Assembly: GCA_038322455.1 (NCBI GenBank)
Contig: JBBQFZ010000002.1
Coordinates: 20,223 to 84,222, forward strand
Length of the DNA: 64,000 nt
Direction: 5' to 3'
From: Gemmatimonadales bacterium
Lineage (GTDB): Bacteria > Gemmatimonadota > Gemmatimonadetes > Gemmatimonadales > Gemmatimonadaceae
The translations under genes were made by a program, and so were the position numbers. Of the stretch, positions 1,345 through 51,670 are shown one piece after another. Position 1 is the stretch's first letter. Each line of letters begins with the position of its first letter. The notes under the pieces are model-generated. The model was not told the origin of the DNA, did not search any database, and was given only the letters and a program-made list of their open reading frames with translations.

Positions 1345-3384
1345 ATGCGTTTTGTCCATTGCGCGCTGGCTTTCACCTTTGCGCTCGCGACTTCGGCGGC
1401 AGCACAGACCTCGGCCGTCCCGATTCAGACCAGGCCGCTCGACCCCGCGAATCTCGACAGGTCCGTCCCGGCGTGTACGGACTTCTATCACTTTGCCAAC
1501 GGCGGATGGGTCAAGACGCATCCGATTCCCGCGGCGTTCTCCAGGTGGGGTAGCTTCGACGAGCTACAGGAGAACAACCAAAGCAACCTGCTGACGATCC
1601 TGCGAGCGGCGTCCGCGAACGGGAACAACCAGGCGACCGCCGATCTGCGCAAGCTCGCAGTGTACTACTCGTCGTGCATGGACTCCGCCGCGGCGGAGCG
1701 CAATGGCGCTCAGCCAATCGCGAGCGAGCTGTCGCGAATAGCCGCCCTAGCCAATCGCGCTCAGGTTGAATCCGAGATCGCTCGCCTGCACTCCATGGGA
1801 GTTCCGGCTCTCTTTTCCTTTGGCGCCGAGCAGGACGCAAAGAACAGCACGTCCGTAATCGCGGGCATGAGTCAGGGCGGACTGTCGCTGCCGGACCGCG
1901 ACTACTATCTGAATCCAGAGAAGCGCTACGCCGATATCCGCGCCAACTACCAGGATCACGTTGGTCGCATGTTCCGGCTCGCTGGTGAAAGTCCGGCTAA
2001 GGCGGCGATCGATGCGCAAAGAGTGGTTGCGATCGAGACCGCGCTTGCCAAGCCGGCCAAGACACGCGTTGAGCGCCGCGATCCGAACGCCAACTACCAC
2101 AAGATGAGCGCCGCGGAGCTGGCACAGCTCGCACCCGGCTTCCGCTGGCCGGCCTTTTACTCGGGCGAGGGAAGGGCCGACATCTCGACGATCAACGTCC
2201 AGAATCCCGCCTTCGTGAAGGTGGCGGACAGCTTGTTGAGCAATGCTGCGATCGACGACTGGAAAGCGTATCTGCGGTGGCATGTCATCGATGCGACAGC
2301 GCAGAGTCTGAGCTCCCCCTTCGTGAACGAGGACTTTCGCTTCGGAAGCACCTTGAGCGGTGCAAAGGAGATGCTGCCCCGCGACAAGCGCTGCGCCCGC
2401 GCAACCGACAATGGCTTGAGGGATGCGCTAGGTCAGGCCTACGTGGCTCAGTACTTTACACCCGCGGCAAAACAGCGCGCACTCGATATGGTCCGCAACC
2501 TGGAATCGGTTTTCCATGATCGAATCCTGACGCTGGCCTGGATGAGCGACACGACGAAGGCGCAGGCAGAGGGAAAGCTCGCGTCGTTCACAAACAAGAT
2601 CGGATATCCCGACAAGTGGCGCGACTATTCCACGCTCAACATCCAGCCGGGCCCCTTCCTCAACAACGTGCTGGCAGTCCGCCAGTACGAGCGTCGCCGC
2701 AACATGGCGAGAATCGGACAGCCCGTCGACCGCGCGGAATGGGGAATGACGCCTCCGACCGTCAACGCGTACTACAATCCGCAGATGAACGAGATCGTGT
2801 TTCCCGCGGGCATCATGCAGCCGCCGTTCTTCGATCCGAACGCCGATGACGCGGTGAACTATGGCGGAATGGGCGCGGTCATCGGACACGAGATGACGCA
2901 CGGCTTCGACGACCAGGGCGCGCAGTTCGACCGCGATGGCAATCTCAAGAACTGGTGGAGCGCATCGGATCTCGAGAAATTCAAGCACGGCACGGGGCTC
3001 GTGTCGGCCCAGTACGATTCGTACACAGTGCTCGACAGTGTTCACGTGAACGGAAAGCTGACGCTCGGAGAGAACCTCGCCGATCTGGGTGGGTTGTCGG
3101 TCTCCTATGCGGCCCTCGAGAAGGCGCTCGCCCAGAAGGGACGGCCCGCCAACATTGACGGCTTTACCCCCGAGCAGCGCTTCTTTCTCGCCTGGGCGCA
3201 GATCTGGAGAGCGAACACCACTCCGGAGACCGCCCGGTTGCGGATCAACACCGATCCGCATTCCCCGGGCGTGTGGCGAACCAATGGGCCCCTCTCGAAC
3301 ATGCCCCAGTTCGCGGCCGCGTTCGGGTGCAAGCCGGGGGATGCGATGGTGCGCGACGAATCCGTCAGACCCGTCATCTGGTAG
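1345..3384 (+). CDS. Secreted M13-family (neprilysin/PepO-like) zinc metallopeptidase
   Basis: Signal peptide; DFYHFANGGW; VNAYY; HEMTH zinc motif; GENLADLGG; DPHSP; GGAG RBS upstream. Confidence 0.93.
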   Translation: MRFVHCALAFTFALATSAAAQTSAVPIQTRPLDPANLDRSVPACTDFYHFANGGWVKTHPIPAAFSRWGSFDELQENNQSNLLTILRAASANGNNQATADLRKLAVYYSSCMDSAAAERNGAQPIASELSRIAALANRAQVESEIARLHSMGVPALFSFGAEQDAKNSTSVIAGMSQGGLSLPDRDYYLNPEKRYADIRANYQDHVGRMFRLAGESPAKAAIDAQRVVAIETALAKPAKTRVERRDPNANYHKMSAAELAQLAPGFRWPAFYSGEGRADISTINVQNPAFVKVADSLLSNAAIDDWKAYLRWHVIDATAQSLSSPFVNEDFRFGSTLSGAKEMLPRDKRCARATDNGLRDALGQAYVAQYFTPAAKQRALDMVRNLESVFHDRILTLAWMSDTTKAQAEGKLASFTNKIGYPDKWRDYSTLNIQPGPFLNNVLAVRQYERRRNMARIGQPVDRAEWGMTPPTVNAYYNPQMNEIVFPAGIMQPPFFDPNADDAVNYGGMGAVIGHEMTHGFDDQGAQFDRDGNLKNWWSASDLEKFKHGTGLVSAQYDSYTVLDSVHVNGKLTLGENLADLGGLSVSYAALEKALAQKGRPANIDGFTPEQRFFLAWAQIWRANTTPETARLRINTDPHSPGVWRTNGPLSNMPQFAAAFGCKPGDAMVRDESVRPVIW

Positions 3385-3423
3385 TCATCGACGCAACGAG
3401 CCGCAATCGATCGACGAATGAAA

Positions 3424-28176: not shown

Positions 28177-28249
28177 GCGGGAATAGCTCAGTTGGTAGAG
28201 CACAACCTTGCCAAGGTTGGGGTCGCGGGTTCGAGTCCCGTTTCCCGCT
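28177..28249 (+). tRNA. tRNA-Gly(GCC), CCA not encoded
   Basis: Cloverleaf: GCGGGAA/TTCCCGC acceptor stem, D arm GCTC/GAGC, anticodon arm CAACC-TTGCCAA-GGTTG, T loop TTCGAGT. Confidence 0.97.
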
Positions 28250-28390: not shown

Positions 28391-30985
28391 GTGAACGGCC
28401 CGCTGGCACCCACTCGGCGCTCTTACGGACTGCGCCCGCGCCTCATCGTGCTGGTCCTCGGCGCGGTTACGCCGTTCGTCCTGCTCATCGGGATGGTCGC
28501 CAGGCAGCATCGCTTCAACGAGCGGTCCGGCGCGGAGCAACGAGCGCTGGCCCAGGCGCAGGCTCTCGCCGACAGATTGGATAGCCGCTTCGGCACGATC
28601 GAGACATTGCTGTTCACCCTTGTTCACGCCGCGAGCCCGAATCCTCATGATTCGTTGGCCAACGACGCACTTCTTCGTGCCGTTGTTGACGAGCTGCCGA
28701 CGGACTTCGCGCACTTTGCCGTCACGACCGAGTCGGGTATCGGGATTGGCACATCCGATACGTTGTTGAATGGAAGGCGGCGCTCAATGTCTTCGCCGAC
28801 ATCGGTTCCCGATACTCTTCTTGGGTTCGACATCCAGGGCCCCGTGCCGCTCTATGGCGCGGAGGGACCTCTCGCCATTGCAATCTCGCGCGTTGACAGC
28901 GCGCGGGGAATGCGTGTGATCGGCTTCGTGACGACCGCCCGGCTCCAGCGCGAGCTGTCGAAGAGCATCATGCTGGACACCGCACTGGCAACGATCACGG
29001 ATTCGCCGGGAAGGGTGATCTTCAGATCGCCTCTGGCGGGCAACTGGCTCGGTAAGTCCATCAGTGGCACGCCCCTGTTTCGCGCATCGAGTGGCCGAAA
29101 GACCGGCGTCGCCGAGGTGTCTGATGTCGACGGAACTCCGGTCTTTTCCGGCTTCGTTACTTCGAGGCACATTCCCTGGATCGTGCAGGTGGGCACACCC
29201 CAGTCTCTGGCGTTCGCAAAGGAGCGGGCAGATTTCTGGAGAGCCGTCAGGTGGGGCACGTTCGCCCTCTTTGTCGGGCTCGCGCTGGCGTGGATGCAGG
29301 CGACCCGAATCATTGTTCCGATGAGACGGGTGGCAGATGACGCTGCGGTGTTCTCCAAGGGAGATCTCTCGCACCGTTCGGACCTGGCGGGCTCGAATGA
29401 CGAAATCGGAATGCTCAGCAAGACGCTCAACGCCATGGCCGAAGCCTTGGAGATGCGCGAGGACGCTTTGACCCGAAGCGAGCTGCGCTTCAGAGCAATC
29501 ATTGAAAATGTTGACGATATGGTGATCATCGCGGCGCCCGATCTATCCCGGCACTACGTGAGCCCGGCAATGTCGCGAATACTCGGCTATTCGGAGGAAG
29601 AGCTGCTCGCGATAACTGCTCAGGACATGATTCACCCGACCGACTGGCCCGGCGTGCGCGAGCTGATCCGGGATGTGCAGGTGATTCCCGGAGCCAAGGT
29701 ATCTGGTCAGGCGAGGTACCTGCACAAGGACGGATCGTGGCTCGTTTTCGACTCCGCGCTGAGCAACATGCTGGATGTTCCGGGCGTAGAGGGCATTGTT
29801 GTAAACCTGCGCGACGTGACACAGAGGGTGGCCCTCGAAAGCGACCTCAGGCAGGCGCAGAAGATGGAGTCGGTCGGTCAGCTCGCGGGGGGCGTAGCTC
29901 ACGACTTCAACAATCTCCTCACCGTGATCACGGGCAGGATCGACTTCCTCCTTGGAGCACCCAACCTCAGCGCGGAGCAGCAGACGGATCTCGACGAGAT
30001 CATGAAGGCGACGGTGCGGGCGACTGGGCTTACGCGGCAGCTTTTGGCCTTCAGCAGGAAGCAGCTGCTGCAGCCACGCGTTGTAAACCTGAATCGCACC
30101 CTTGCTGACGTGGAGCCAATGCTGCGAAGGCTGATTGGAGAGGACATCCAGATTCGCATTGAGCACGGCGCAGATCTCGGGTCTGTCACGGCGGATCCGG
30201 GGCAGCTTCAGCAGATACTGATGAATCTCGCCGTCAATGCTCGCGACGCGATGCCTTCGGGAGGCGTGCTGACGTTCAGGACGGCGAATGAGACCGTCCG
30301 CAATCGCCCGGCGCCAATTCCCGCGCTCCTCGAGGACGGCGAGTACGTCGTGCTGACAGTCTCGGACACGGGGCTCGGAATGGAGCAGTCGACACAGGCG
30401 CGCATCTTCGAGCCGTTCTTCACCACCAAGACCCAGGGCAAGGGAACGGGCCTTGGCCTCTCGACCGTCTATGGAATCGTCAAGCAATCGGGAGCCGCCA
30501 TTTCGGTGACGAGCGCGCCGAATGCCGGGACGACCTTTCAGGTGCGTTTTCCGCGAACCGACGGGTTTGCGTTGGCGCAGCCGGCTGAACGGGATCCGCA
30601 GTCGGCCCTTTCGGGGACCGAGACCATCCTTCTCGTCGAAGACGACAGCTCGGTGAGAGATCTCGTCGAGCGCGTGCTTCGCTCGCGCGGGTATCATGTG
30701 CTCGCGGCGCAGCACGGGGGCGACGCGCTGCAGCTGGCGTCGCACACGCTGCGCGTTGTGGATCTCGTGCTCACCGACGTGGTGATGCCATCGATGAGCG
30801 GACGGGAGCTGGTGGAGGCGCTAAGAGCCGGGCGGCCGGCGCTTCGCGTTCTTTACATGTCGGGGTACACCGACGACGAAATCATCCGCCGCGGACTTCA
30901 CGATCCCAGCATCTCGTTCATTCAGAAGCCGTTCACGGCCGACAATTTGGCGATGCAGGTGAGAAAAAGCCTGGACGTGGCGTGA
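28391..30985 (+). CDS. Hybrid sensor histidine kinase (TM-Cache-like-TM-HAMP-PAS-HisKA-HATPase-REC, CckA-like)
   Basis: AHDFNNLL H-box, [12 protein letters not shown]-box, [40 protein letters not shown]. The ORF-track start at 28208 runs through the tRNAs, so GTG 28391 is used. Confidence 0.92.
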
Positions 30986-41227: not shown

Positions 41228-43048
41228 ATGATAGACTCTGCCAGCGAAACACAAACCTCTACCGGCGCGACGCTGACCGCGCGCGAGAAGCGCGATCTGC
41301 AGAAGGCGCAGCTGCGTCCGCTTGCCAACCTCAGGCCCGAGCTTTACGACGACGACGATTATTCGCAGGACGAGCTCGAGACAATGATGGAGATGTACAA
41401 CGGGACGATGGCCTCGATCGAAGAGGGAGAAATCGTCAAGTCCCGCGTGCTGGATATTCGCGACAACATGGTCGTCCTCGACATCGGCTTCAAATCCGAA
41501 GGGACGATTCCGCTCGAAGAGTTCAAGGATCTTCCCGACCTCAAGCCGGGCGACGAAGTAGAAGTTCTTCTCGAGCACCTCGAGGATCAGGAAGGATCCG
41601 TCGTTCTTTCGAAGAAGAAAGCCGACTTCATGCGCGTGTGGGAGCGCATCCGCGTTGCCTACGAGAACGACGAACCAGTGCGCGGCTCATTGATCAAGAA
41701 GATCAAGGGCGGCGTGGTAGTCGATCTCATGGGAGTCGATGCATTTCTCCCTGGATCTCAGATCGCCCTCCGGCGCGTTCCCAACGTCGACGAGCTGCTC
41801 GGCCAGACCTTCGACTTCAAGATCATCAAGCTCAATAAGCGCCGGCGGAACATCGTCGTCTCGCGTCGCGTCATCCTCGAGCAGGAGAGAGCGGGCAAGC
41901 GCGAGAAGCTGATGAAGGAGCTGCAGAAAGATCAGGTCCGCAAGGGCGTGGTCAAGAACATCACCGACTTCGGCGCATTCATCGATCTCGGCGGCGTTGA
42001 CGGTCTGCTCCACATCACCGACATGTCGTACGGTCGCATTCAGCATCCGTCCGAGATGGTGCACATCGGCCAGGAGCTCGAGGTCAAGGTTCTCGACATC
42101 GATTGGGACCGGGAGCGCATCTCCCTCGGCCTCAAGCAGCTCCAGAGCTATCCGTGGAAGGATGTCGCCGAGAAGTATCCGGTCGGCACGCGCGTCAGTG
42201 GCAAGGTTGTTTCGATCACCAACTATGGCGCGTTCATCGAGCTCGAGCCGGGCATCGAAGGCCTCGTTCACATCAGCGAGATGAGCTGGACGCGCAACGT
42301 TCGTCATCCGTCGAAGCTGGTGTCGATCGGCGAAGCGATCGAAGCTGTCGTGCTCAAAGTCGATCCGAACGAGGAAAAGATCTCGCTCGGCATGAAGCAG
42401 ACGGAGCAGGATCCGTGGATGATGCTGCCGGATAAGTATCCGATCGGCACGCGTCTCAACGGCAAGGTCCGCAACCTCACCAGCTTTGGCGCGTTTGTAG
42501 AGATCGAGCCGGGCATCGACGGACTGATTCACATCTCCGACATGTCGTGGACCAAGCGCGTTCAGCATCCTTCGGAAGTTGTGAAGAAGGGCGACTCGGT
42601 CGACGTCGTGATATTGAACGTCGATGCGGAGAACAAGCGCATCTCACTGGGTCTCAAGCAGGCGACCGAAGATCCGTGGCTGCGTATCGGCGAGACCTAT
42701 CCGGTCGGCACCGAGCTGCGCGGCAAAGTCGTGCGTCTGATGGATAAGGGCGTCGTCGTCGACATTGGCAACGACATCGAGGGCTTCGTTCCCGTAAGCC
42801 AGCTGAACTTCGGCCAGCCGGTGAACAGTCCCGCGGACATCGTCTACGAGACGATGAATCTCGACCTCAGGGTTCTCGAGGTGGATCCGATCCATCGGCG
42901 GATCGTTCTGGCAGTGACGGCGATTCCAGAGGATCAGCCTCCGCGTCCGGAAACGCCGTCCAAGGTGATTCCGATGGAGTCCGACGATTACAATCTGTCC
43001 GATCCCATCCCAACGCCGCCTGATTCATACGTGGAAGAGCCGGCATAA
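41228..43048 (+). CDS. rpsA: 30S ribosomal protein S1
   Basis: Six S1 repeats (DIGFKSEG, AFLPGSQ, ITDFGAFIDLGGVDGLLH, YGAFIEL, FGAFVEI, IEGFVP). Confidence 0.97.
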   Translation: MIDSASETQTSTGATLTAREKRDLQKAQLRPLANLRPELYDDDDYSQDELETMMEMYNGTMASIEEGEIVKSRVLDIRDNMVVLDIGFKSEGTIPLEEFKDLPDLKPGDEVEVLLEHLEDQEGSVVLSKKKADFMRVWERIRVAYENDEPVRGSLIKKIKGGVVVDLMGVDAFLPGSQIALRRVPNVDELLGQTFDFKIIKLNKRRRNIVVSRRVILEQERAGKREKLMKELQKDQVRKGVVKNITDFGAFIDLGGVDGLLHITDMSYGRIQHPSEMVHIGQELEVKVLDIDWDRERISLGLKQLQSYPWKDVAEKYPVGTRVSGKVVSITNYGAFIELEPGIEGLVHISEMSWTRNVRHPSKLVSIGEAIEAVVLKVDPNEEKISLGMKQTEQDPWMMLPDKYPIGTRLNGKVRNLTSFGAFVEIEPGIDGLIHISDMSWTKRVQHPSEVVKKGDSVDVVILNVDAENKRISLGLKQATEDPWLRIGETYPVGTELRGKVVRLMDKGVVVDIGNDIEGFVPVSQLNFGQPVNSPADIVYETMNLDLRVLEVDPIHRRIVLAVTAIPEDQPPRPETPSKVIPMESDDYNLSDPIPTPPDSYVEEPA

Positions 43049-43070: not shown

Positions 43071-43105
43071 AACGGTCCGTTCGTAAGAGCGGGCCGTTTT
43101 CTTTT
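43071..43105 (+). terminator. Intrinsic terminator after rpsA
   Basis: AACGGTCCGTTC-GTAA-GAGCGGGCCGTT followed by TTCTTTT. Confidence 0.85.
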
Positions 43106-43197: not shown

Positions 43198-44307
43198 TTG
43201 CCAACCTCAGCCGAACGCGAAGCCCTTCTCGTATTGGATCACGAGCTTACAGTCCGTGCCGCGAACAGGGGGTTCTACTCCATGTTTCGCCTTGCTCCGG
43301 AGGAGTGCGTCGGCCAAAAGGTCTACCAGCTCGGCGGTCGAGCTTGGGACGAACGCCTTCGTTCGTTGCTCGAGACGGTTCTAAGCGGTGAGCCGCAGGC
43401 TGATCATTTCGAGCTGATTCACGACGAGAAGGAAGGTGGCCGCGGAGTGCTTTGGGTCAGTGCCCGCCTGATGCCCGCCGACGATCCCGCCGACGCGACG
43501 ATTCTCCTCGCCATCGAAGACCTGACGACTGGTCGCACGGTAGAGCAGTCTCTGCTGACGAAGAGCCAGGAGCTGTTCACCTTGGCCGACCTGGCAGGTC
43601 GCAGCGCACACGAGCTGAACAATCTGTTGACCGTGATCCACATGAACGCGGATCTCATCGAGACCGCGCTTGCTTCTGCCAAGAAGTCGACGCTCGAAGC
43701 GGCCGACATTCGTCTGGCCGTCGAGCGGGCTCAATCGATCACGAAGAAGTTGTTGCTCACGAGCAGGCGGGTGCTGCCGCAGCCGACAGGCCTCGACAGA
43801 AACGACGGGTCCGTCCCTCTTCCCGGATCTCCGCTCAAGGAATCGGACACCGAGCGAGCTGAGCGCGAAGAAGCACAGGCGCAGTCTGGCCGACTCCGCG
43901 GGCCGCGGGAAGGCGTGCCGGCGGGGCACGAAACGATTCTCCTCGTTGACGACGAGAAATCCCTGCGCAAGCTCGCAAATCGAGTGCTCTCGGCGGCGGG
44001 CTATCGCGTGCTCGAGGCATCTGACGGCGCAGTCGCTCTTCGTGTCGCTGCCGAGGAGGTAGGCGAGGTCGATCTGGTTCTAACCGACGTGGAAATGCCG
44101 ACGCTTGGCGGCCGCGGAATGGTGGACGAGCTGCTCGAGTTGAGTCCAGGCACCCGGGTCCTGTTCATGTCCGGGTACACCGACAACGAGATTCTCCGGC
44201 GTGGAATAAGGACTTCCGAGACGAACTTCCTTCAGAAGCCATTCACAGCCGAGTCATTGATTGCAGCGGTGCGTGCGACGCTGACCAAGCCCGCGACTGC
44301 ACCGTAG
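43198..44307 (+). CDS. PAS-HisKA(DHp)-receiver protein lacking the HATPase domain
   Basis: CheR-type PAS (LVLDHELTVRAANRGFY), H-box AHELNNLL, ~45-aa linker, then REC (LLVDD, LTDVEMP, FMSGY, QKPF). No N, G1, F or G2 boxes. The TTG start is uncertain. Confidence 0.8.
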   Translation: MPTSAEREALLVLDHELTVRAANRGFYSMFRLAPEECVGQKVYQLGGRAWDERLRSLLETVLSGEPQADHFELIHDEKEGGRGVLWVSARLMPADDPADATILLAIEDLTTGRTVEQSLLTKSQELFTLADLAGRSAHELNNLLTVIHMNADLIETALASAKKSTLEAADIRLAVERAQSITKKLLLTSRRVLPQPTGLDRNDGSVPLPGSPLKESDTERAEREEAQAQSGRLRGPREGVPAGHETILLVDDEKSLRKLANRVLSAAGYRVLEASDGAVALRVAAEEVGEVDLVLTDVEMPTLGGRGMVDELLELSPGTRVLFMSGYTDNEILRRGIRTSETNFLQKPFTAESLIAAVRATLTKPATAP

Positions 44308-45368
44308 TGGCGTCCAAGCGACTGAATGGCTTTGAAGCCAAGGCACGCATACTCGTCATCGATGACCATGAAGAGAACATCAAGCTCGTAACCAGAGTTC
44401 TCTCAAAGGCCGGATACAAGCACATCGCCTCCACGATCAACTCCGCCGAAGCCCTGTCGCTTCACGTGGAGTTCAAGCCGGACCTCGTCCTGCTGGATCT
44501 CCACATGGGGGATAAGGACGGCTTCGAAGTCCTCCAGGAATTCGCTTCCCTGAACGGAGGCGGTGAGCGTGTTCCAGTGCTCATGATCACGGCGGACGAC
44601 AGCGCGGAGACCAAACGCCGCGCGCTCGCCTTGGGGGCAAAGGACTTCGTCGGAAAGCCGTTCGACGGACCCGAGGTGCTGCTTCGCATCGCCAACCTCC
44701 TGGAAACTCGATTTCTTCAGCTGGCGCTCGAGGGGCAGAACTCGGAGCTGGAGCAGAAAGTCGCTGAGCGAACGAAAGCGCTCGAGGAATCGCAGCTCGA
44801 AGTGCTCGAGCGATTGGCGGCCGCGGTCGAATTCCGGGACGACGACACCGGTCAACACACCAAGCGGGTCGGCAAGGTCTCGGCGATGCTGGCCGAAGCG
44901 ATTGGGCTTCCCCCGGAAACCGTACAATTGATCGAACGCGCCGCGCCCCTTCACGATATCGGAAAAGTCGGAATCCCCGACAACATCCTCCTCAAGGCCG
45001 GGCCGCTAACGTCTGAAGAGTTCGAGATCATGAAGTCCCACACGGTCATCGGGGCGAGGATGTTGTCAAATGGGGGCTCGGAGCTTGTTCGGATGTCACA
45101 ACGGATTGCGCTCAGCCATCATGAGTGGTGGGATGGCTCGGGGTATCCGCACCGTACATCAGGGGACCGGATTCCCCTCGAAGCGAGAATTGTTGCGATC
45201 GCCGATTTCCTCGACGCACTCACTCACGACCGTCCGTATCGTCCAGCGTGGTCGCTCGCCGAAACGCTTCAGGAGATCAAGAGCAGATCGGGCACGCACT
45301 TCGAGCCCCTCATCGCCACTACTCTCGCCAAGATCGACTGGCGGGCCAATTACGCGCTCGTAACGTAG
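44307..45368 (+). CDS. Response regulator with HD-GYP phosphodiesterase domain (RpfG-like)
   Basis: REC (VIDD, LLDLHM, MITA, GKPF); HDIGKVGIP, HTVIG, HHEWWDGSGYP, RIVAIADFLDAL, RPYR. GTG overlaps the upstream TAG by 1 nt. Confidence 0.93.
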   Translation: MASKRLNGFEAKARILVIDDHEENIKLVTRVLSKAGYKHIASTINSAEALSLHVEFKPDLVLLDLHMGDKDGFEVLQEFASLNGGGERVPVLMITADDSAETKRRALALGAKDFVGKPFDGPEVLLRIANLLETRFLQLALEGQNSELEQKVAERTKALEESQLEVLERLAAAVEFRDDDTGQHTKRVGKVSAMLAEAIGLPPETVQLIERAAPLHDIGKVGIPDNILLKAGPLTSEEFEIMKSHTVIGARMLSNGGSELVRMSQRIALSHHEWWDGSGYPHRTSGDRIPLEARIVAIADFLDALTHDRPYRPAWSLAETLQEIKSRSGTHFEPLIATTLAKIDWRANYALVT

Positions 45369-48211: not shown

Positions 48212-50332
48212 ATGGACTCCAGCTCCTCCATGCTCGACTCGATGACGTTGGCGCCCTCCTCCGCCGTTCCCGGCTGGACCGCCGAGTACGCCGTGCCTCT
48301 CGGAGGCCCGGGCCACCTCCTGCTGGCCACTTTCGAGCAGGCTGCCATCGGAATCGCGCACCTCACTCTTGGCGAAGAGTGGATCTCCGTTAATCAGCGA
48401 TATTGCCAGATCACCGGATACAGCCGCGAGGAGATTCTCCAGCTCAAGCTCGAGGCGTTGACCCACCCCGAAGATGTTCCCGCCAGTCGCGAGTTCATCA
48501 CACGAATTCGATCGGGCGAACTGCCAGAATACAAGATGGAGAAGCGTTACATCCGGAAGGATGGTGCGATCATCTGGGTGAACCTCACTGTGTCAATCGT
48601 GAGGGCCAGCAGTGGAGAGCCGTTGTATCTCGTCGCGTTCATCGAGGACATAACCCAGCGCCGCGAGGCCGAATACCAGGCGAACAGATCGTTGTCGCTG
48701 CTGCGCGCGACGCTCGAATCGACGGCGGATGGCATTCTCGTGGTCGATGTCAGTGGAAAGATCCTCAGCTTCAATCAGAAGATGCCGGACATGTGGGGAA
48801 TCCCGCCGGAGATCTTTGCATCGGGTGACGACGAGCGCGCGATCACCGCCGCGCTCGCCAAGCTCTCGCATCCCGAGGACTTCATGGCGAAGGTCGTGGA
48901 GCTATACAACAATCCCGACGTCGCGAGCTATGACGTGCTGCAGCTGAAAGATGGGAGGATCTTCGAGCGGTATTCCCAGCCGCAGCGGATCAATGACGTC
49001 GCGGTCGGAAGGGTGTGGAGCTTTCGCGATGTAACCGCGCGCCGCCGCGCGGAGGAACAGGGACGCGCGCTGGAGCGGGAGCAGGCTGCGCGTGCGGAAG
49101 CCGAGAACTCACAGAAGCGCACGGCGCTTCTTGCGGAAGCGAGCAGAGTGCTCAGCACGTCGTTCGACTACCAGACGACCCTGGCCGCGCTCGTTCGGCT
49201 CGCCGTCCCCACGCTGGCCGACTACTGCGCCCTGGACATCCTCGAGGGGGACGACGAGTTCAAGCGCATCGGAGAAGCGCACGTCGATCCAACCAAGTCG
49301 ACGCTCATAAGAAAAGTCGCGACTTTTCCGAGAAGCGCGCTCACCGCGCAGCACCCCTTGAACCGCGTGATGACAACCGGCTATCCGGTCCTCGAGGCTG
49401 AGGTTACACCGGCCTTCATTCGTGCGTCCTTTGCTGAGCCGACCCAGAGACAAACGGTCGAGGCGCTCGATCCGCGCTCGCTGATTTGCGTGCCGCTGGT
49501 GAGCTCCGGAAAGATCCTGGGCGCCTTGACGCTGGTGACTTCCGGCTCGGGACGCCGGTACGACGAAGCCGATCTCTCGCTGGCGGCGGACGTCGCGCGT
49601 CGCGCCGCGATTGTGGTGGAGCACGCGCGCCTTTTTCACGAGGCGCAGCAGGCCACGAAAGCGCGGGACGACGTTCTTGCCGTCGTGGCGCATGATCTTC
49701 GTAATCCGCTGAACACGGTTACGATGGCGATCAGCCTCATGCTCGAAAACACGCCCCCTGAACGGACGCAGGAGCGAAGACAGGTCGAGATAGTGCGTCG
49801 GGCCGCCGATCGGATGAACCGAATGATTCAGGATCTGCTCGACGTCAGGAGGATGGAGAGCGGGCGTCTCGCGATCGATCTGAAAGCCGAAGACGTCAAC
49901 GTGATCATCAATGACATGATCGAGATGCTTCGTCCTCTGGCAGAGGGCAGCTCGATAGTCCTCGAGCCCAGCGTCCCCGAGGGGCTTCCGTCCGTTCTCT
50001 GCGATTCCGCGAGAATTCAGCAGGTGCTTTCGAATCTGGTTGGAAACGCGGTCAAGTTCACGCCCCGGCAGGGGCGAATCACCGTCTGCGCGGAGCTCAT
50101 TGACGGCGAGGTGCGGTTCGGGGTAATCGATACCGGCCCCGGAATTCCCCCTGAGCAGGTGCCGCACATCTTCGGGCAGTTCTGGCAGGCCTCACCATCG
50201 GACCGCCGCGGAATCGGCCTCGGACTGGCCATCGCGAAGGGAATCGTGGAGGCCCATAAGGGGACTATCTGGGTGGAAAGCCACGTCGGCCTCGGTAGCA
50301 CCTTTTACTTCACGCTGCCGACCGCGACCTAG
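48212..50332 (+). CDS. Cytoplasmic PAS-PAS-GAF sensor histidine kinase
   Basis: PAS/PAC (THPED, EKRYIRKDG), second PAS, GAF, H-box AHDLRNPL, NLVGNAVKF, DTGPGI, GLGLAI. Confidence 0.92.
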   Translation: MDSSSSMLDSMTLAPSSAVPGWTAEYAVPLGGPGHLLLATFEQAAIGIAHLTLGEEWISVNQRYCQITGYSREEILQLKLEALTHPEDVPASREFITRIRSGELPEYKMEKRYIRKDGAIIWVNLTVSIVRASSGEPLYLVAFIEDITQRREAEYQANRSLSLLRATLESTADGILVVDVSGKILSFNQKMPDMWGIPPEIFASGDDERAITAALAKLSHPEDFMAKVVELYNNPDVASYDVLQLKDGRIFERYSQPQRINDVAVGRVWSFRDVTARRRAEEQGRALEREQAARAEAENSQKRTALLAEASRVLSTSFDYQTTLAALVRLAVPTLADYCALDILEGDDEFKRIGEAHVDPTKSTLIRKVATFPRSALTAQHPLNRVMTTGYPVLEAEVTPAFIRASFAEPTQRQTVEALDPRSLICVPLVSSGKILGALTLVTSGSGRRYDEADLSLAADVARRAAIVVEHARLFHEAQQATKARDDVLAVVAHDLRNPLNTVTMAISLMLENTPPERTQERRQVEIVRRAADRMNRMIQDLLDVRRMESGRLAIDLKAEDVNVIINDMIEMLRPLAEGSSIVLEPSVPEGLPSVLCDSARIQQVLSNLVGNAVKFTPRQGRITVCAELIDGEVRFGVIDTGPGIPPEQVPHIFGQFWQASPSDRRGIGLGLAIAKGIVEAHKGTIWVESHVGLGSTFYFTLPTAT

Positions 50333-50392: not shown

Positions 50393-51670
50393 TTGCCGGG
50401 AGACAGCTCTAGCGTCCATACACGACGCTCCGCTCCTCGGCCCAGGCCGGCCAAAGCGACCGGGCGTGCCCTTCAGGAGGACAAGCTGGGACAGTCAGTA
50501 TCTCGGGAGTATATAGACACGGCGGAAGCCGCGGGACTCCGCTACGTCACAGATGCGATGCCGGGAATTCGCCGTCAGCGCCACGGTCGCGGGTTCAATT
50601 ACATGGACCCCGATGGCCGTGTCATTCGCGCGCCCGAGATGCTGCAACGGTATCGCTCGCTTGTGATCCCGCCGGCATGGACCGATGTGTGGATCTGTCC
50701 CTATCCCGACGGGCATCTTCAGGTGACCGCCCGCGATGCGAAAGGGCGTAAGCAATACAGATATCACTTGGGTTTCCGGCAGCACCGCGATGGCACCAAG
50801 TTCGAGCGTATGTTCGAGCTGAGCGATGTCCTCTGGAAGATCCGTGAGCGCGTAGAAACTGATATCGAGCTGGATGGTCACCCCCGAAACAAGATCATGG
50901 CGACTCTCGTCTGGCTTCTGGAGACGACGCTCATCCGCATCGGGTCCGACGAATACGCGAAGGCGAACAAATCCTACGGCCTCACGACTTTCCGTCGGAG
51001 ACACGTGGCAGTGGTCGGCTCGGAGCTTCGCTTCGAGTTTCGCGGCAAGAGCGGAATCCAGCACGCCGTCGCGGTAACGGACCGGCGAATCGCACGCATC
51101 GTCCAGAGGTGCCAGGAGCTGCGCGGGGAAGAGCTTTTCAAGTATCTCGACGACGAGGGGAAGAGGCAGGTCGTCCAGGCCGAAGACGTGAACGCCTACC
51201 TTCAGGACGTCACCGGTCGCGAAATAACCGCCAAAGACTTTCGAACCTGGGCAGGAACGATGCTCGTGGCCGAGGCGCTCAGGCAGATCGGGCCAGCGGC
51301 CACCAAGCGCGAAGCCGAGAAGAACATCGTTGCCGCGGTGGACGTAACGGCGAAGCGGCTGGGCAACACGAGAAGCGTCTGTCGCAAATACTACATACAC
51401 CCGGTCCTGCTCGAGGCCTATCTCGAGGGTTCGGTGCTTCCGCCGCTTCCAGAGCGGAAATGGAGCAAGCGCAAGTCAAAGGGTCCGACTCTTCGGCAAC
51501 ACGAGATGGATGTGCTGGCCTTCATCAAGGCGAGGCTCAAGCCGCAGAAGCGTCGCATCGCGGCAAGTCGCTACAAGAAATCGCCGGCCGCCGAGCCCGC
51601 CGGCGAAGACTCGAGGAAACCAAGCGACGCGCCGACAGAAGGGCGCGTGCTGGACCGGGCCGTCTCCTAG
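50393..51670 (+). CDS. DNA topoisomerase IB (bacterial, poxvirus-like)
   Basis: AAGLRYV, PPAWTDVWI, GRKQYRYH, IRIGSDEY, FRGKSG, AKDFRTW, LGNTRSVCRKYYIHP. The true start may be CTG 50486, behind AGGAGG. Confidence 0.92.
   Translation: MPGDSSSVHTRRSAPRPRPAKATGRALQEDKLGQSVSREYIDTAEAAGLRYVTDAMPGIRRQRHGRGFNYMDPDGRVIRAPEMLQRYRSLVIPPAWTDVWICPYPDGHLQVTARDAKGRKQYRYHLGFRQHRDGTKFERMFELSDVLWKIRERVETDIELDGHPRNKIMATLVWLLETTLIRIGSDEYAKANKSYGLTTFRRRHVAVVGSELRFEFRGKSGIQHAVAVTDRRIARIVQRCQELRGEELFKYLDDEGKRQVVQAEDVNAYLQDVTGREITAKDFRTWAGTMLVAEALRQIGPAATKREAEKNIVAAVDVTAKRLGNTRSVCRKYYIHPVLLEAYLEGSVLPPLPERKWSKRKSKGPTLRQHEMDVLAFIKARLKPQKRRIAASRYKKSPAAEPAGEDSRKPSDAPTEGRVLDRAVS

Follow-up and report, generated by a model that had tools for sequence, protein, structure and literature searches.

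Two-component signalling is usually read as one kinase and one regulator, and proteins that carry a dimerisation and histidine phosphotransfer (DHp) domain without an ATPase domain are often misannotated as kinases or response regulators. Galperin et al. catalogued such proteins in 2018 as 'HisKA, no HATPase', a class misannotated as kinases of which no member had been studied experimentally (PMC5847659); the roles proposed for them are phosphoacceptor, phosphotransfer or phosphatase (PMC5847659; see also PMC1183210). P2CS keeps a category of 'possible incomplete histidine kinases', and the term iHKs is found in bioRxiv 10.64898/2026.02.27.708494. No experimentally studied bacterial protein without the catalytic domain emerged from the literature searches directed at such proteins; what they yielded was remarks in censuses, engineered truncations, split CheA kinases and pseudokinases without the His. 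ChpT and Spo0B set a precedent for four-helix-bundle phosphotransferases that derive from kinases and are devoid of ATPase activity (PMC9981736). Here, we analyse gene A, which encodes a PAS-DHp-REC protein in a 64,000-nucleotide stretch (the window) of contig JBBQFZ010000002.1 from a Gemmatimonadales bacterium (assembly GCA_038322455.1, 2.9 Mb). Protein A is a hybrid-kinase derivative belonging to this catalogued but experimentally unstudied architecture class, and its gene is usually coupled to a second one, gene B, for a REC-HD-GYP protein. A preliminary description of the locus had put it forward as a candidate for an undescribed system. That claim does not stand, since incomplete kinases of the 'HisKA, no HATPase' type, including REC+PAS/GAF+HisKA forms, are already in the census (PMC5847659).

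Protein A consists of a PAS sensor, a DHp hairpin and a C-terminal receiver (coordinates in Table 1). An H-box of the H-E/D-x-x-T/N type is present as H138-E-L-N-N142 within AHELNN: the codon of His138 is CAC (43609-43611), Glu139 stands at H+1 and Asn142 at H+4. The HisKA match is weak (residues 136-190, 17.9 bits, below the Pfam cut-off of 26.9), a precomputed PF00512 match is carried by many orthologs of A, and two kinase-less paralogs score 35.9 and 29.9 bits. Response_reg matches residues 247-359 (Pfam, E 4.7e-21), and the active site of the receiver is full (D251/D252, D297, S325, K347).

The catalytic domain which normally separates these two modules is missing. Pfam gives no HATPase_c match in protein A, and a six-frame scan of the whole assembly yields 56 HATPase_c matches, none of them at this locus. 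From the end of the DHp to the start of the receiver, protein A has 48 amino acids (aa); this distance is 170-210 aa in a set of ten full-length relatives, and for six, among them the hybrid kinase at 28208 of the same window, it is 180-183 aa. The AlphaFold model (35 homologs, mean predicted local distance difference test score, pLDDT, 70.7) comprises a PAS fold, helices 115-160 and 166-190, a receiver at 246-363 and disordered stretches at 191-215 and 229-243. No ATPase fold is hidden in this model, and a Foldseek search with it returned only generic REC and PAS-DHp matches. The protein was modelled as a monomer, in which the DHp appears as a two-helix hairpin. Protein A is thus predicted to have no capacity for self-phosphorylation. 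The first reading of the locus had listed the phospho-His codon, the Asn at H+4, the complete receiver, the in-frame absence of the whole ATP-binding domain and a resemblance of DHp and REC to the 28208 kinase (there placed at 28391). All of this holds; BLASTP aligns the receivers at 52% identity (6e-29) and the DHp domains at 33% (4e-11).

The type of receiver is informative. Intermediary (Rec_inter) receivers are marked by an FxSGY or 'FATGUY' motif on β4 and the following loop (PMC9981736). The receiver of A carries this motif as VLFMSGY (residues 321-327), invariant in homologs. Its closest sequence in the PDB is the Rec domain of CckA (6TNE, E 2.4e-21), followed by Spo0F. Judged by these features, it can be classed as a CckA-type intermediary receiver.

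Gene A is not an isolated curiosity. In a large protein search, more than 120 clusters were recovered that are ~371 aa long and 73-90% identical to A, all of them PAS(+HisKA)+REC proteins without HATPase; homologs are annotated at source as 'response regulator [Gemmatimonadaceae]'. Within the family, A occurs in one of 77 genera, that of the window itself, where 48 of 101 sampled species carry it at full length (51-90% identity, 0 internal stops). The distribution of A is therefore confined to about half the species of a single genus of uncultured soil Gemmatimonadaceae. Ratios of nonsynonymous to synonymous substitution rates (dN/dS), computed by the Nei-Gojobori method over 30 orthologs, are 0.087 for the whole gene, 0.084 for the PAS, 0.134 for the DHp and 0.042 for the receiver; against the closest relative, dN is 0.05 at a dS of ~1. 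D252, D297, S325 and K347 are invariant in 35 homologs. So are H138, N141 and N142, and Glu139 is conserved in at least 90% of homologs and in all 30 codon-aligned orthologs. These residues are retained through synonymous change: CAC/CAT for His138, AAT/AAC for Asn142, GAC/GAT for Asp297, four codons for Ser325 and AAG/AAA for Lys347. The residues by which the DHp of A would contact the REC of B or the DHp of the kinase at 48212 (see below) are nearly invariant among orthologs as well. Gene A is functional and under strong purifying selection.

That A is what is left of a hybrid kinase in decay, or an artefact of assembly, is accordingly exceedingly improbable. Such an account could appeal to the TTG start, which lacks a Shine-Dalgarno sequence, and to frameshift-like copies: the ortholog at G203:C101:973-2002 is split over two frames, and the cluster representative P0128 has a low-complexity, frameshift-like middle section. 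Those two copies may reflect errors of sequencing or assembly, or else genuine but rare inactivation. Against decay stand the 48 intact orthologs from independent assemblies, all with the same junction, and the dN/dS of the whole gene. Most orthologs start with ATG at most one codon from the position homologous to the TTG of the window, and residues 8-28, upstream of the next methionine (Met29), are themselves under purifying selection (ratio of nonsynonymous to synonymous proportions, pN/pS, 0.22). Because about 50 independent assemblies share the DHp-REC junction, misassembly is excluded. The cautions first attached to the locus (a weak start, a possible misassembly, a unique deletion under relaxed selection in a gene whose relatives are full-length kinases) are therefore cleared, and A as a unique deletion or pseudogene was rejected on its spread over 48 species and its dN/dS. 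In one genome (G209), two full-length copies are found (C74:536-1624 and C129:17811-18899; 71-72% identity to the copy in the window), with no HD-GYP partner.

How the architecture arose can be read from its relatives. With HMMER, 1.84 billion cluster representatives yielded no collinear kinase-less clusters beyond P0121 (65% identity), P0122 (51%) and P0128; the next best matches are large hybrid kinases. Other proteins, for instance P0173 (548 aa) and P0265 (528 aa), agree with A in PAS subtype, H-box family and receiver type but have the catalytic domain intact, and their PAS-DHp-CA-REC order is taken as the ancestral architecture of A. The same PAS subtype, in which A has a conserved Cys37, is seen in tandem in large CheB/CheR-type multi-PAS kinases. 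In kinases of other organisms, up to four to five near-identical tandem copies of it occur (P0126, P0133, P0138, P0140, P0167 and P0168; PAS consensus …REPLxVLDxxLRVxxANxxFYxxFxVxPEET…WDIPxLRxLLE…).

Traces of the lost domain seem to persist in the linker. Two motifs of the linker, LPQPTGLDR and VPLPGSPLKE, have pLDDT below 50 yet are constrained like the H-box (pN/pS 0.081 and 0.089 vs 0.086). They align with 'LQPRVVNLN' and 'TFQVRFPR' of the 28208 kinase; in full-length relatives, these positions correspond to the first strand after DHp helix 2 and to the final strand of the catalytic domain, respectively. Both motifs are probably the stumps of the first and last strands of an internally deleted catalytic domain. 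One or both are absent from the DHp-REC paralog described below and from the ortholog of A in G180. The 'GSPLK' of the linker resembles a proline-directed Ser phosphorylation site.

The genome encodes four HDFNN-type hybrid kinases with a catalytic domain and three HE[LM]NN-type DHp proteins without one: protein A, a 241-aa DHp-REC protein and a 350-aa PAS-PAS-DHp protein. The genes of the latter two are divergently transcribed, and the pair is kept in G011 and G084. It looks like a split version of A, whose H+1 glutamate both proteins share, and its two products could form a heterodimer through their DHp domains. Across the genus, the DHp-REC paralog is found together with A. A maximum-likelihood tree of the concatenated DHp and REC sequences places A orthologs and DHp-REC paralogs in one clade apart from the kinases with a catalytic domain (support 100/99); this support came only from the concatenation, the receiver-only tree being unresolved. 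Such a clade suggests one old in-frame deletion of the catalytic domain followed by duplication, which is the simplest history of A and its DHp-REC paralog. A candidate fourth kinase-less H-box protein on contig C24 proved to be an ordinary kinase truncated where the contig stops, and was rejected. In nine genomes without A (six of the same genus, three of other genera), no full-length kinase stands in the corresponding place after rpsA; there, unrelated genes or no kinase follow.

Gene B is the usual neighbour. A and B share one base, the stop codon of A (TAG, 44305-44307) ending on the first base of the GTG with which B starts (TAGTG), and this GTG is the sole in-frame start of B which retains strand 1 of its REC. 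Protein B scores 118.2 bits with HD_5 and 82.7 bits with HD (Pfam). Its match to PmGH (4MCW), an HD-GYP phosphodiesterase, has an E of 1.2e-51 and aligns both HDIGK and HHEWWDGSGYP, so that the overlap with an intact REC-HD-GYP gene is as first reported. B is presumed to be the cyclic di-GMP (c-di-GMP) phosphodiesterase output of A. Signalling by c-di-GMP is present in this organism, with at least five GGDEF proteins in its genome. In at least 36 of the 48 genomes, B follows A immediately, its start overlapping or abutting the stop of A (TAGTG, TGATG, TAAATG, TAAGTG). Since the adjacency is also found in G184, the most divergent lineage, the pairing is probably ancestral.

The pairing is common, then, but not obligatory. 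At least eight genomes have A at the same locus and no B-like gene at E<=1e-50 (G084, G153, G156, G160, G164, G177, G209 and G213), and G180, G195 and G198 have only a distant, unlinked HD-GYP paralog. Between two B-lacking genomes, dN/dS of A is 0.075 over a dS of 0.77; A is selected there, and its function thus does not depend on B. The earlier proposal that the module controls cyclic-dinucleotide turnover is overstated: the B-lacking genomes show that this is not the sole role. In two lineages that have lost the HD-GYP gene, rpsA and A are separated by unrelated insertions: an 812-aa Ser/Thr protein kinase with tetratricopeptide repeats in G084 (L078 7501-9939) and a 945-aa M16-type peptidase in G180 (L079 1529-4366).

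We tentatively favour a reading, to which we would give somewhat less than an even chance, in which protein A is a fused receiver and histidine-phosphotransferase relay comparable to Spo0F+Spo0B or CckA-Rec+ChpT. Its grounds are the absent ATPase domain, the selection on the gene, the kept active-site residues, the intermediary-type receiver, the likeness of helix α1 in the receivers of A and B, the A-B overlap, an orphan kinase nearby (at 48212) and the precedents of ChpT and Spo0B. From these we infer the phosphotransfer steps, the donor and the gating by PAS as follows. A kinase with an ATPase domain would phosphorylate Asp297 of A; the 48212 kinase is the likeliest donor and the HDFNN hybrid kinases are the alternative. 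The phosphoryl group would then move from Asp297 to His138 on A's own DHp, acting as Spo0B or ChpT, and from there to the receiver of the co-translated B, switching c-di-GMP hydrolysis. The PAS domain would gate the conformation of the DHp and hence decide which way phosphate flows. The same DHp site, its Asn142 being intact, could also dephosphorylate B.

As partners of A, the preliminary description had named two CckA-like candidates, the kinases at 28391 and 48212. The 48212 kinase turns out to be a canonical, non-hybrid PAS-GAF HisKA kinase, flanked by a major facilitator superfamily (MFS) transporter and a topoisomerase IB, with no adjacent response regulator. Synteny gives it the better support of the two. 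The order rpsA, A, B, (Zn-peptidase), DinB, (MFS transporter), PAS-GAF kinase recurs on independent contigs, and the kinase is syntenic with A in L001, L002, L078 and L079. Counting orthologs at >=72% identity, 40 genomes have both A and this kinase (43 with three that carry fragments of A), 8 have A only, 3 the kinase only with no A found, and about 47 neither. The 48212 kinase is the best candidate donor for A on this genomic evidence. The 28208 kinase (28208/28391-30985) shares only DHp and REC with A and is merely a family relative. Another kinase, of 510 aa and just 31% identical to the PAS-GAF kinase, lies between DinB and the Zn-peptidase near A in G195 (L080 2100-3632); a kinase with a catalytic domain thus stays close to A even without the usual one.

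Several points weigh against the relay. The co-occurrence of A with the 48212 kinase is confounded by shared ancestry and linkage, and the eight genomes with A only lack the proposed donor. The retention of A under selection in at least eight B-lacking genomes means that B is not its sole acceptor. The likeness of helix α1 in the receivers of A and B is only suggestive: the two receivers are 30% identical overall, and the α1 (DHp-docking) helix of the B receiver is the third-most A-like among 41 other receivers (score 37, tied with one hybrid kinase) and scores highest among those receivers of the genome that are less than 40% identical overall to that of A. A receiver tethered beside its own DHp could run a futile Asp-His-Asp cycle. 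With ordinary Hpt domains in the genome, a DHp-type transferase is not required; the idea that the DHp of A is needed for want of Hpt domains was rejected on three good Hpt matches. Finally, the invariant Asn142, a phosphatase-specific residue, fits a pure phosphatase equally well.

The last point leads to the strongest competitor of the relay, a dedicated PAS-gated phosphatase or phosphate sink, which we consider possible though rather unlikely. The DHp of A (H-E-x-x-N) would dephosphorylate B, the receivers of hybrid kinases, or both, while the receiver of A would itself compete for phosphate. In effect, a bifunctional kinase would be divided in two, with A as its 'off' half and a separate kinase as its 'on' half. 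The isolated DHp of EnvZ is reported to show phosphatase activity without its catalytic domain. The retention of A without B would be explained if A acts on several receivers, and a phosphatase role is among those raised by Galperin et al. for this class (PMC5847659). The two conserved positions of the H-box pull in different directions. The T/N at H+4, invariant here as Asn142, is required exclusively for the phosphatase activity of HisKA proteins; the Glu/Asp at H+1 is autokinase-specific and dispensable for the phosphatase (PMC3510030). Yet His138 is invariant in A, and the kinase-specific Glu139 is kept almost as strictly, including all 30 codon-aligned orthologs and both other kinase-less paralogs, which suggests that the histidine itself is phosphorylated. 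Moreover, a complete intermediary-type receiver with a dN/dS of 0.042 exceeds the needs of a sink.

Conservation of the autokinase-specific Glu139 also speaks for another account, in which A borrows a catalytic domain. By forming a DHp heterodimer or by transient docking, A would have His138 phosphorylated in trans, or would poison its partner as RetS does GacS; the two stumps would be the docking site and A a natural split class-I kinase. The constraint on both stumps despite their predicted disorder fits this account, and so do the four hybrid kinases of the same HDFNN family in the genome. The DHp and catalytic domains of EnvZ are said to work as separate polypeptides. Split CheA kinases do exist in nature (PMC7656254). 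However, the DHp of A is just 33-39% identical to that of the full-length paralogs and dimerisation is normally paralog-specific, and the stumps are not common to the whole group (one or both are missing from the DHp-REC paralog and the G180 ortholog). No stand-alone catalytic-domain protein which could complete a split kinase is evident among the 56 HATPase matches of the genome; the short HATPase frames were rejected as partners, being contig-end truncations or anti-sigma-factor-kinase-like. Neither this absence nor the presence of Hpt domains settles the choice of mechanism. On balance, we regard borrowing as unlikely. An extended version, which appears a little less probable still, is a three-protein kinase-less DHp network (PAS-DHp-REC, DHp-REC and PAS-PAS-DHp) derived from one loss of the catalytic domain and charged by a borrowed ATPase, with the stumps as docking sites. 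If true, it would represent natural split class-I histidine kinases, with several sensors sharing one catalytic engine.

Protein A might alternatively be a phosphorylation-independent scaffold of the pseudokinase type which binds its partners by PAS, DHp or REC. Histidine pseudokinases with purely structural roles are known, namely PsmA (PMC12963549) and DivL. In such a scaffold, the active-site residues would be free to drift; protein A instead keeps His138, Glu139, Asn142 and the full receiver site through synonymous changes, and PsmA lacks both the His and the D/ExxT/N. We hold this option to be very unlikely.

Table 1. Positions of gene A, its domains and partners, and related genes (window coordinates unless a contig is named)
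Feature	Position	Strand	Details
rpsA	41228-43048	+	gene A lies directly 3' of it
Terminator-like hairpin	43071-43098	+	12-bp stem, then T run; 3' of rpsA
Gene A (PAS-DHp-REC)	43198-44307	+	TTG start; 369 aa; ATPase domain absent
PAS_4-type sensor domain of A	43219-43527	+	residues 8-110; Pfam E 4.6e-11
DHp helical hairpin of A	43540-43767	+	residues 115-190; H-box AHELNN; AlphaFold helices; H138, N141 and N142 invariant
Linker motifs of A	43774-43842	+	LPQPTGLDR (43774-43800) and VPLPGSPLKE (43813-43842); conserved, predicted disordered
Receiver domain of A	43933-44286	+	residues 246-363; acceptor Asp297 (GAC 44086-44088); Pfam and AlphaFold
Gene B (REC-HD-GYP)	44307-45368	+	GTG start; 353 aa; Pfam and PmGH match
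REC of B	44349-44687	+	
HD-GYP of B	44823-45308	+	
Orphan PAS-PAS-GAF-HisKA-HATPase kinase	48212-50332	+	candidate partner; Pfam domains, synteny
Topoisomerase IB homolog	50393-51670		directly 3' of the 48212 kinase
DHp-REC paralog	contig C47 (L005) 1486-2211	-	241 aa (VAHELNNLLTVI); HATPase domain absent
PAS-PAS-DHp paralog	contig C47 (L005) 2359-3411	+	350 aa (VAHEMNNVLTVL); HATPase domain absent

At the 5' side of the locus, the predicted hairpin sets rpsA apart from the A-B transcription unit. At the other end, the topoisomerase IB homolog is of the eukaryotic type (Topoisom_I and Top1B_N_bact) and is syntenic in relatives.

Protein A is an unusually clean case for this class: its ancestral architecture and the boundaries of the deletion can be read, the loss is old and selected, and the module has been duplicated. 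With a candidate donor kinase on one side and a defined enzymatic output (HD-GYP) on the other, it offers a tractable model to decide whether such a protein relays phosphate, removes it or borrows a catalytic domain. An answer would alter the annotation of thousands of 'incomplete kinase' genes, and the view of c-di-GMP wiring in the abundant soil Gemmatimonadota.

Among the closest known systems is the 'HisKA, no HATPase' class itself, which like A combines sensor domains with a HisKA-type dimerisation domain that keeps its conserved His, in the absence of a HATPase. REC+PAS/GAF+HisKA proteins, such as A. fulgidus AF_1472, are listed there too (PMC5847659). The catalogued incomplete kinases are mainly archaeal, whereas A is bacterial and has the hybrid order PAS-DHp-REC; it further differs by its traceable origin from an internal deletion, its family of three paralogs per genome and its HD-GYP partner. 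Measured as a hybrid histidine kinase, A has the DHp His and the C-terminal REC Asp but no HATPase_c. The CckA-like HDFNN hybrids share with A the H-box family H-[DE]-x-N-N-L-L-T and the FxSGY receiver; they hold a HATPase region of ~180 aa between DHp and REC and have an H-D H-box, in contrast to the H-E of the kinase-less clade.

Four other comparisons help to place A. ChpT, in the Caulobacter CckA-ChpT-CtrA/CpdR pathway, and Spo0B, in the Bacillus Spo0F-Spo0B-Spo0A relay, are kinase-derived bundles whose His shuttles phosphate without ATP, and the receivers which feed them, CckA-Rec and Spo0F, resemble that of A. Both keep a degenerate catalytic-like α/β domain and have neither PAS nor receiver, whereas A retains two disordered stumps and has a sensor and a receiver fused to its DHp; apart from the DHp fold in general, a sequence relationship with A is undetectable. 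RpfC-RpfG of Xanthomonas is organised like A-B, a sensor with DHp and REC being encoded beside a REC-HD-GYP protein set by phosphorylation of its receiver. However, RpfC phosphorylates RpfG by a C-terminal Hpt domain, and its catalytic domain is functional; A has neither domain. The isolated DHp of EnvZ ('domain A') is reportedly phosphorylated in trans, transfers phosphate and dephosphorylates its regulator without a catalytic domain; it is a laboratory truncation, whereas A is a natural gene under selection. Lastly, PsmA of Streptomyces (PMC12963549) and DivL of Caulobacter are, like A, kinase relatives unable to autophosphorylate. They keep the fold of the catalytic domain and have lost the His; protein A is the reverse, with the His kept and the catalytic domain gone.

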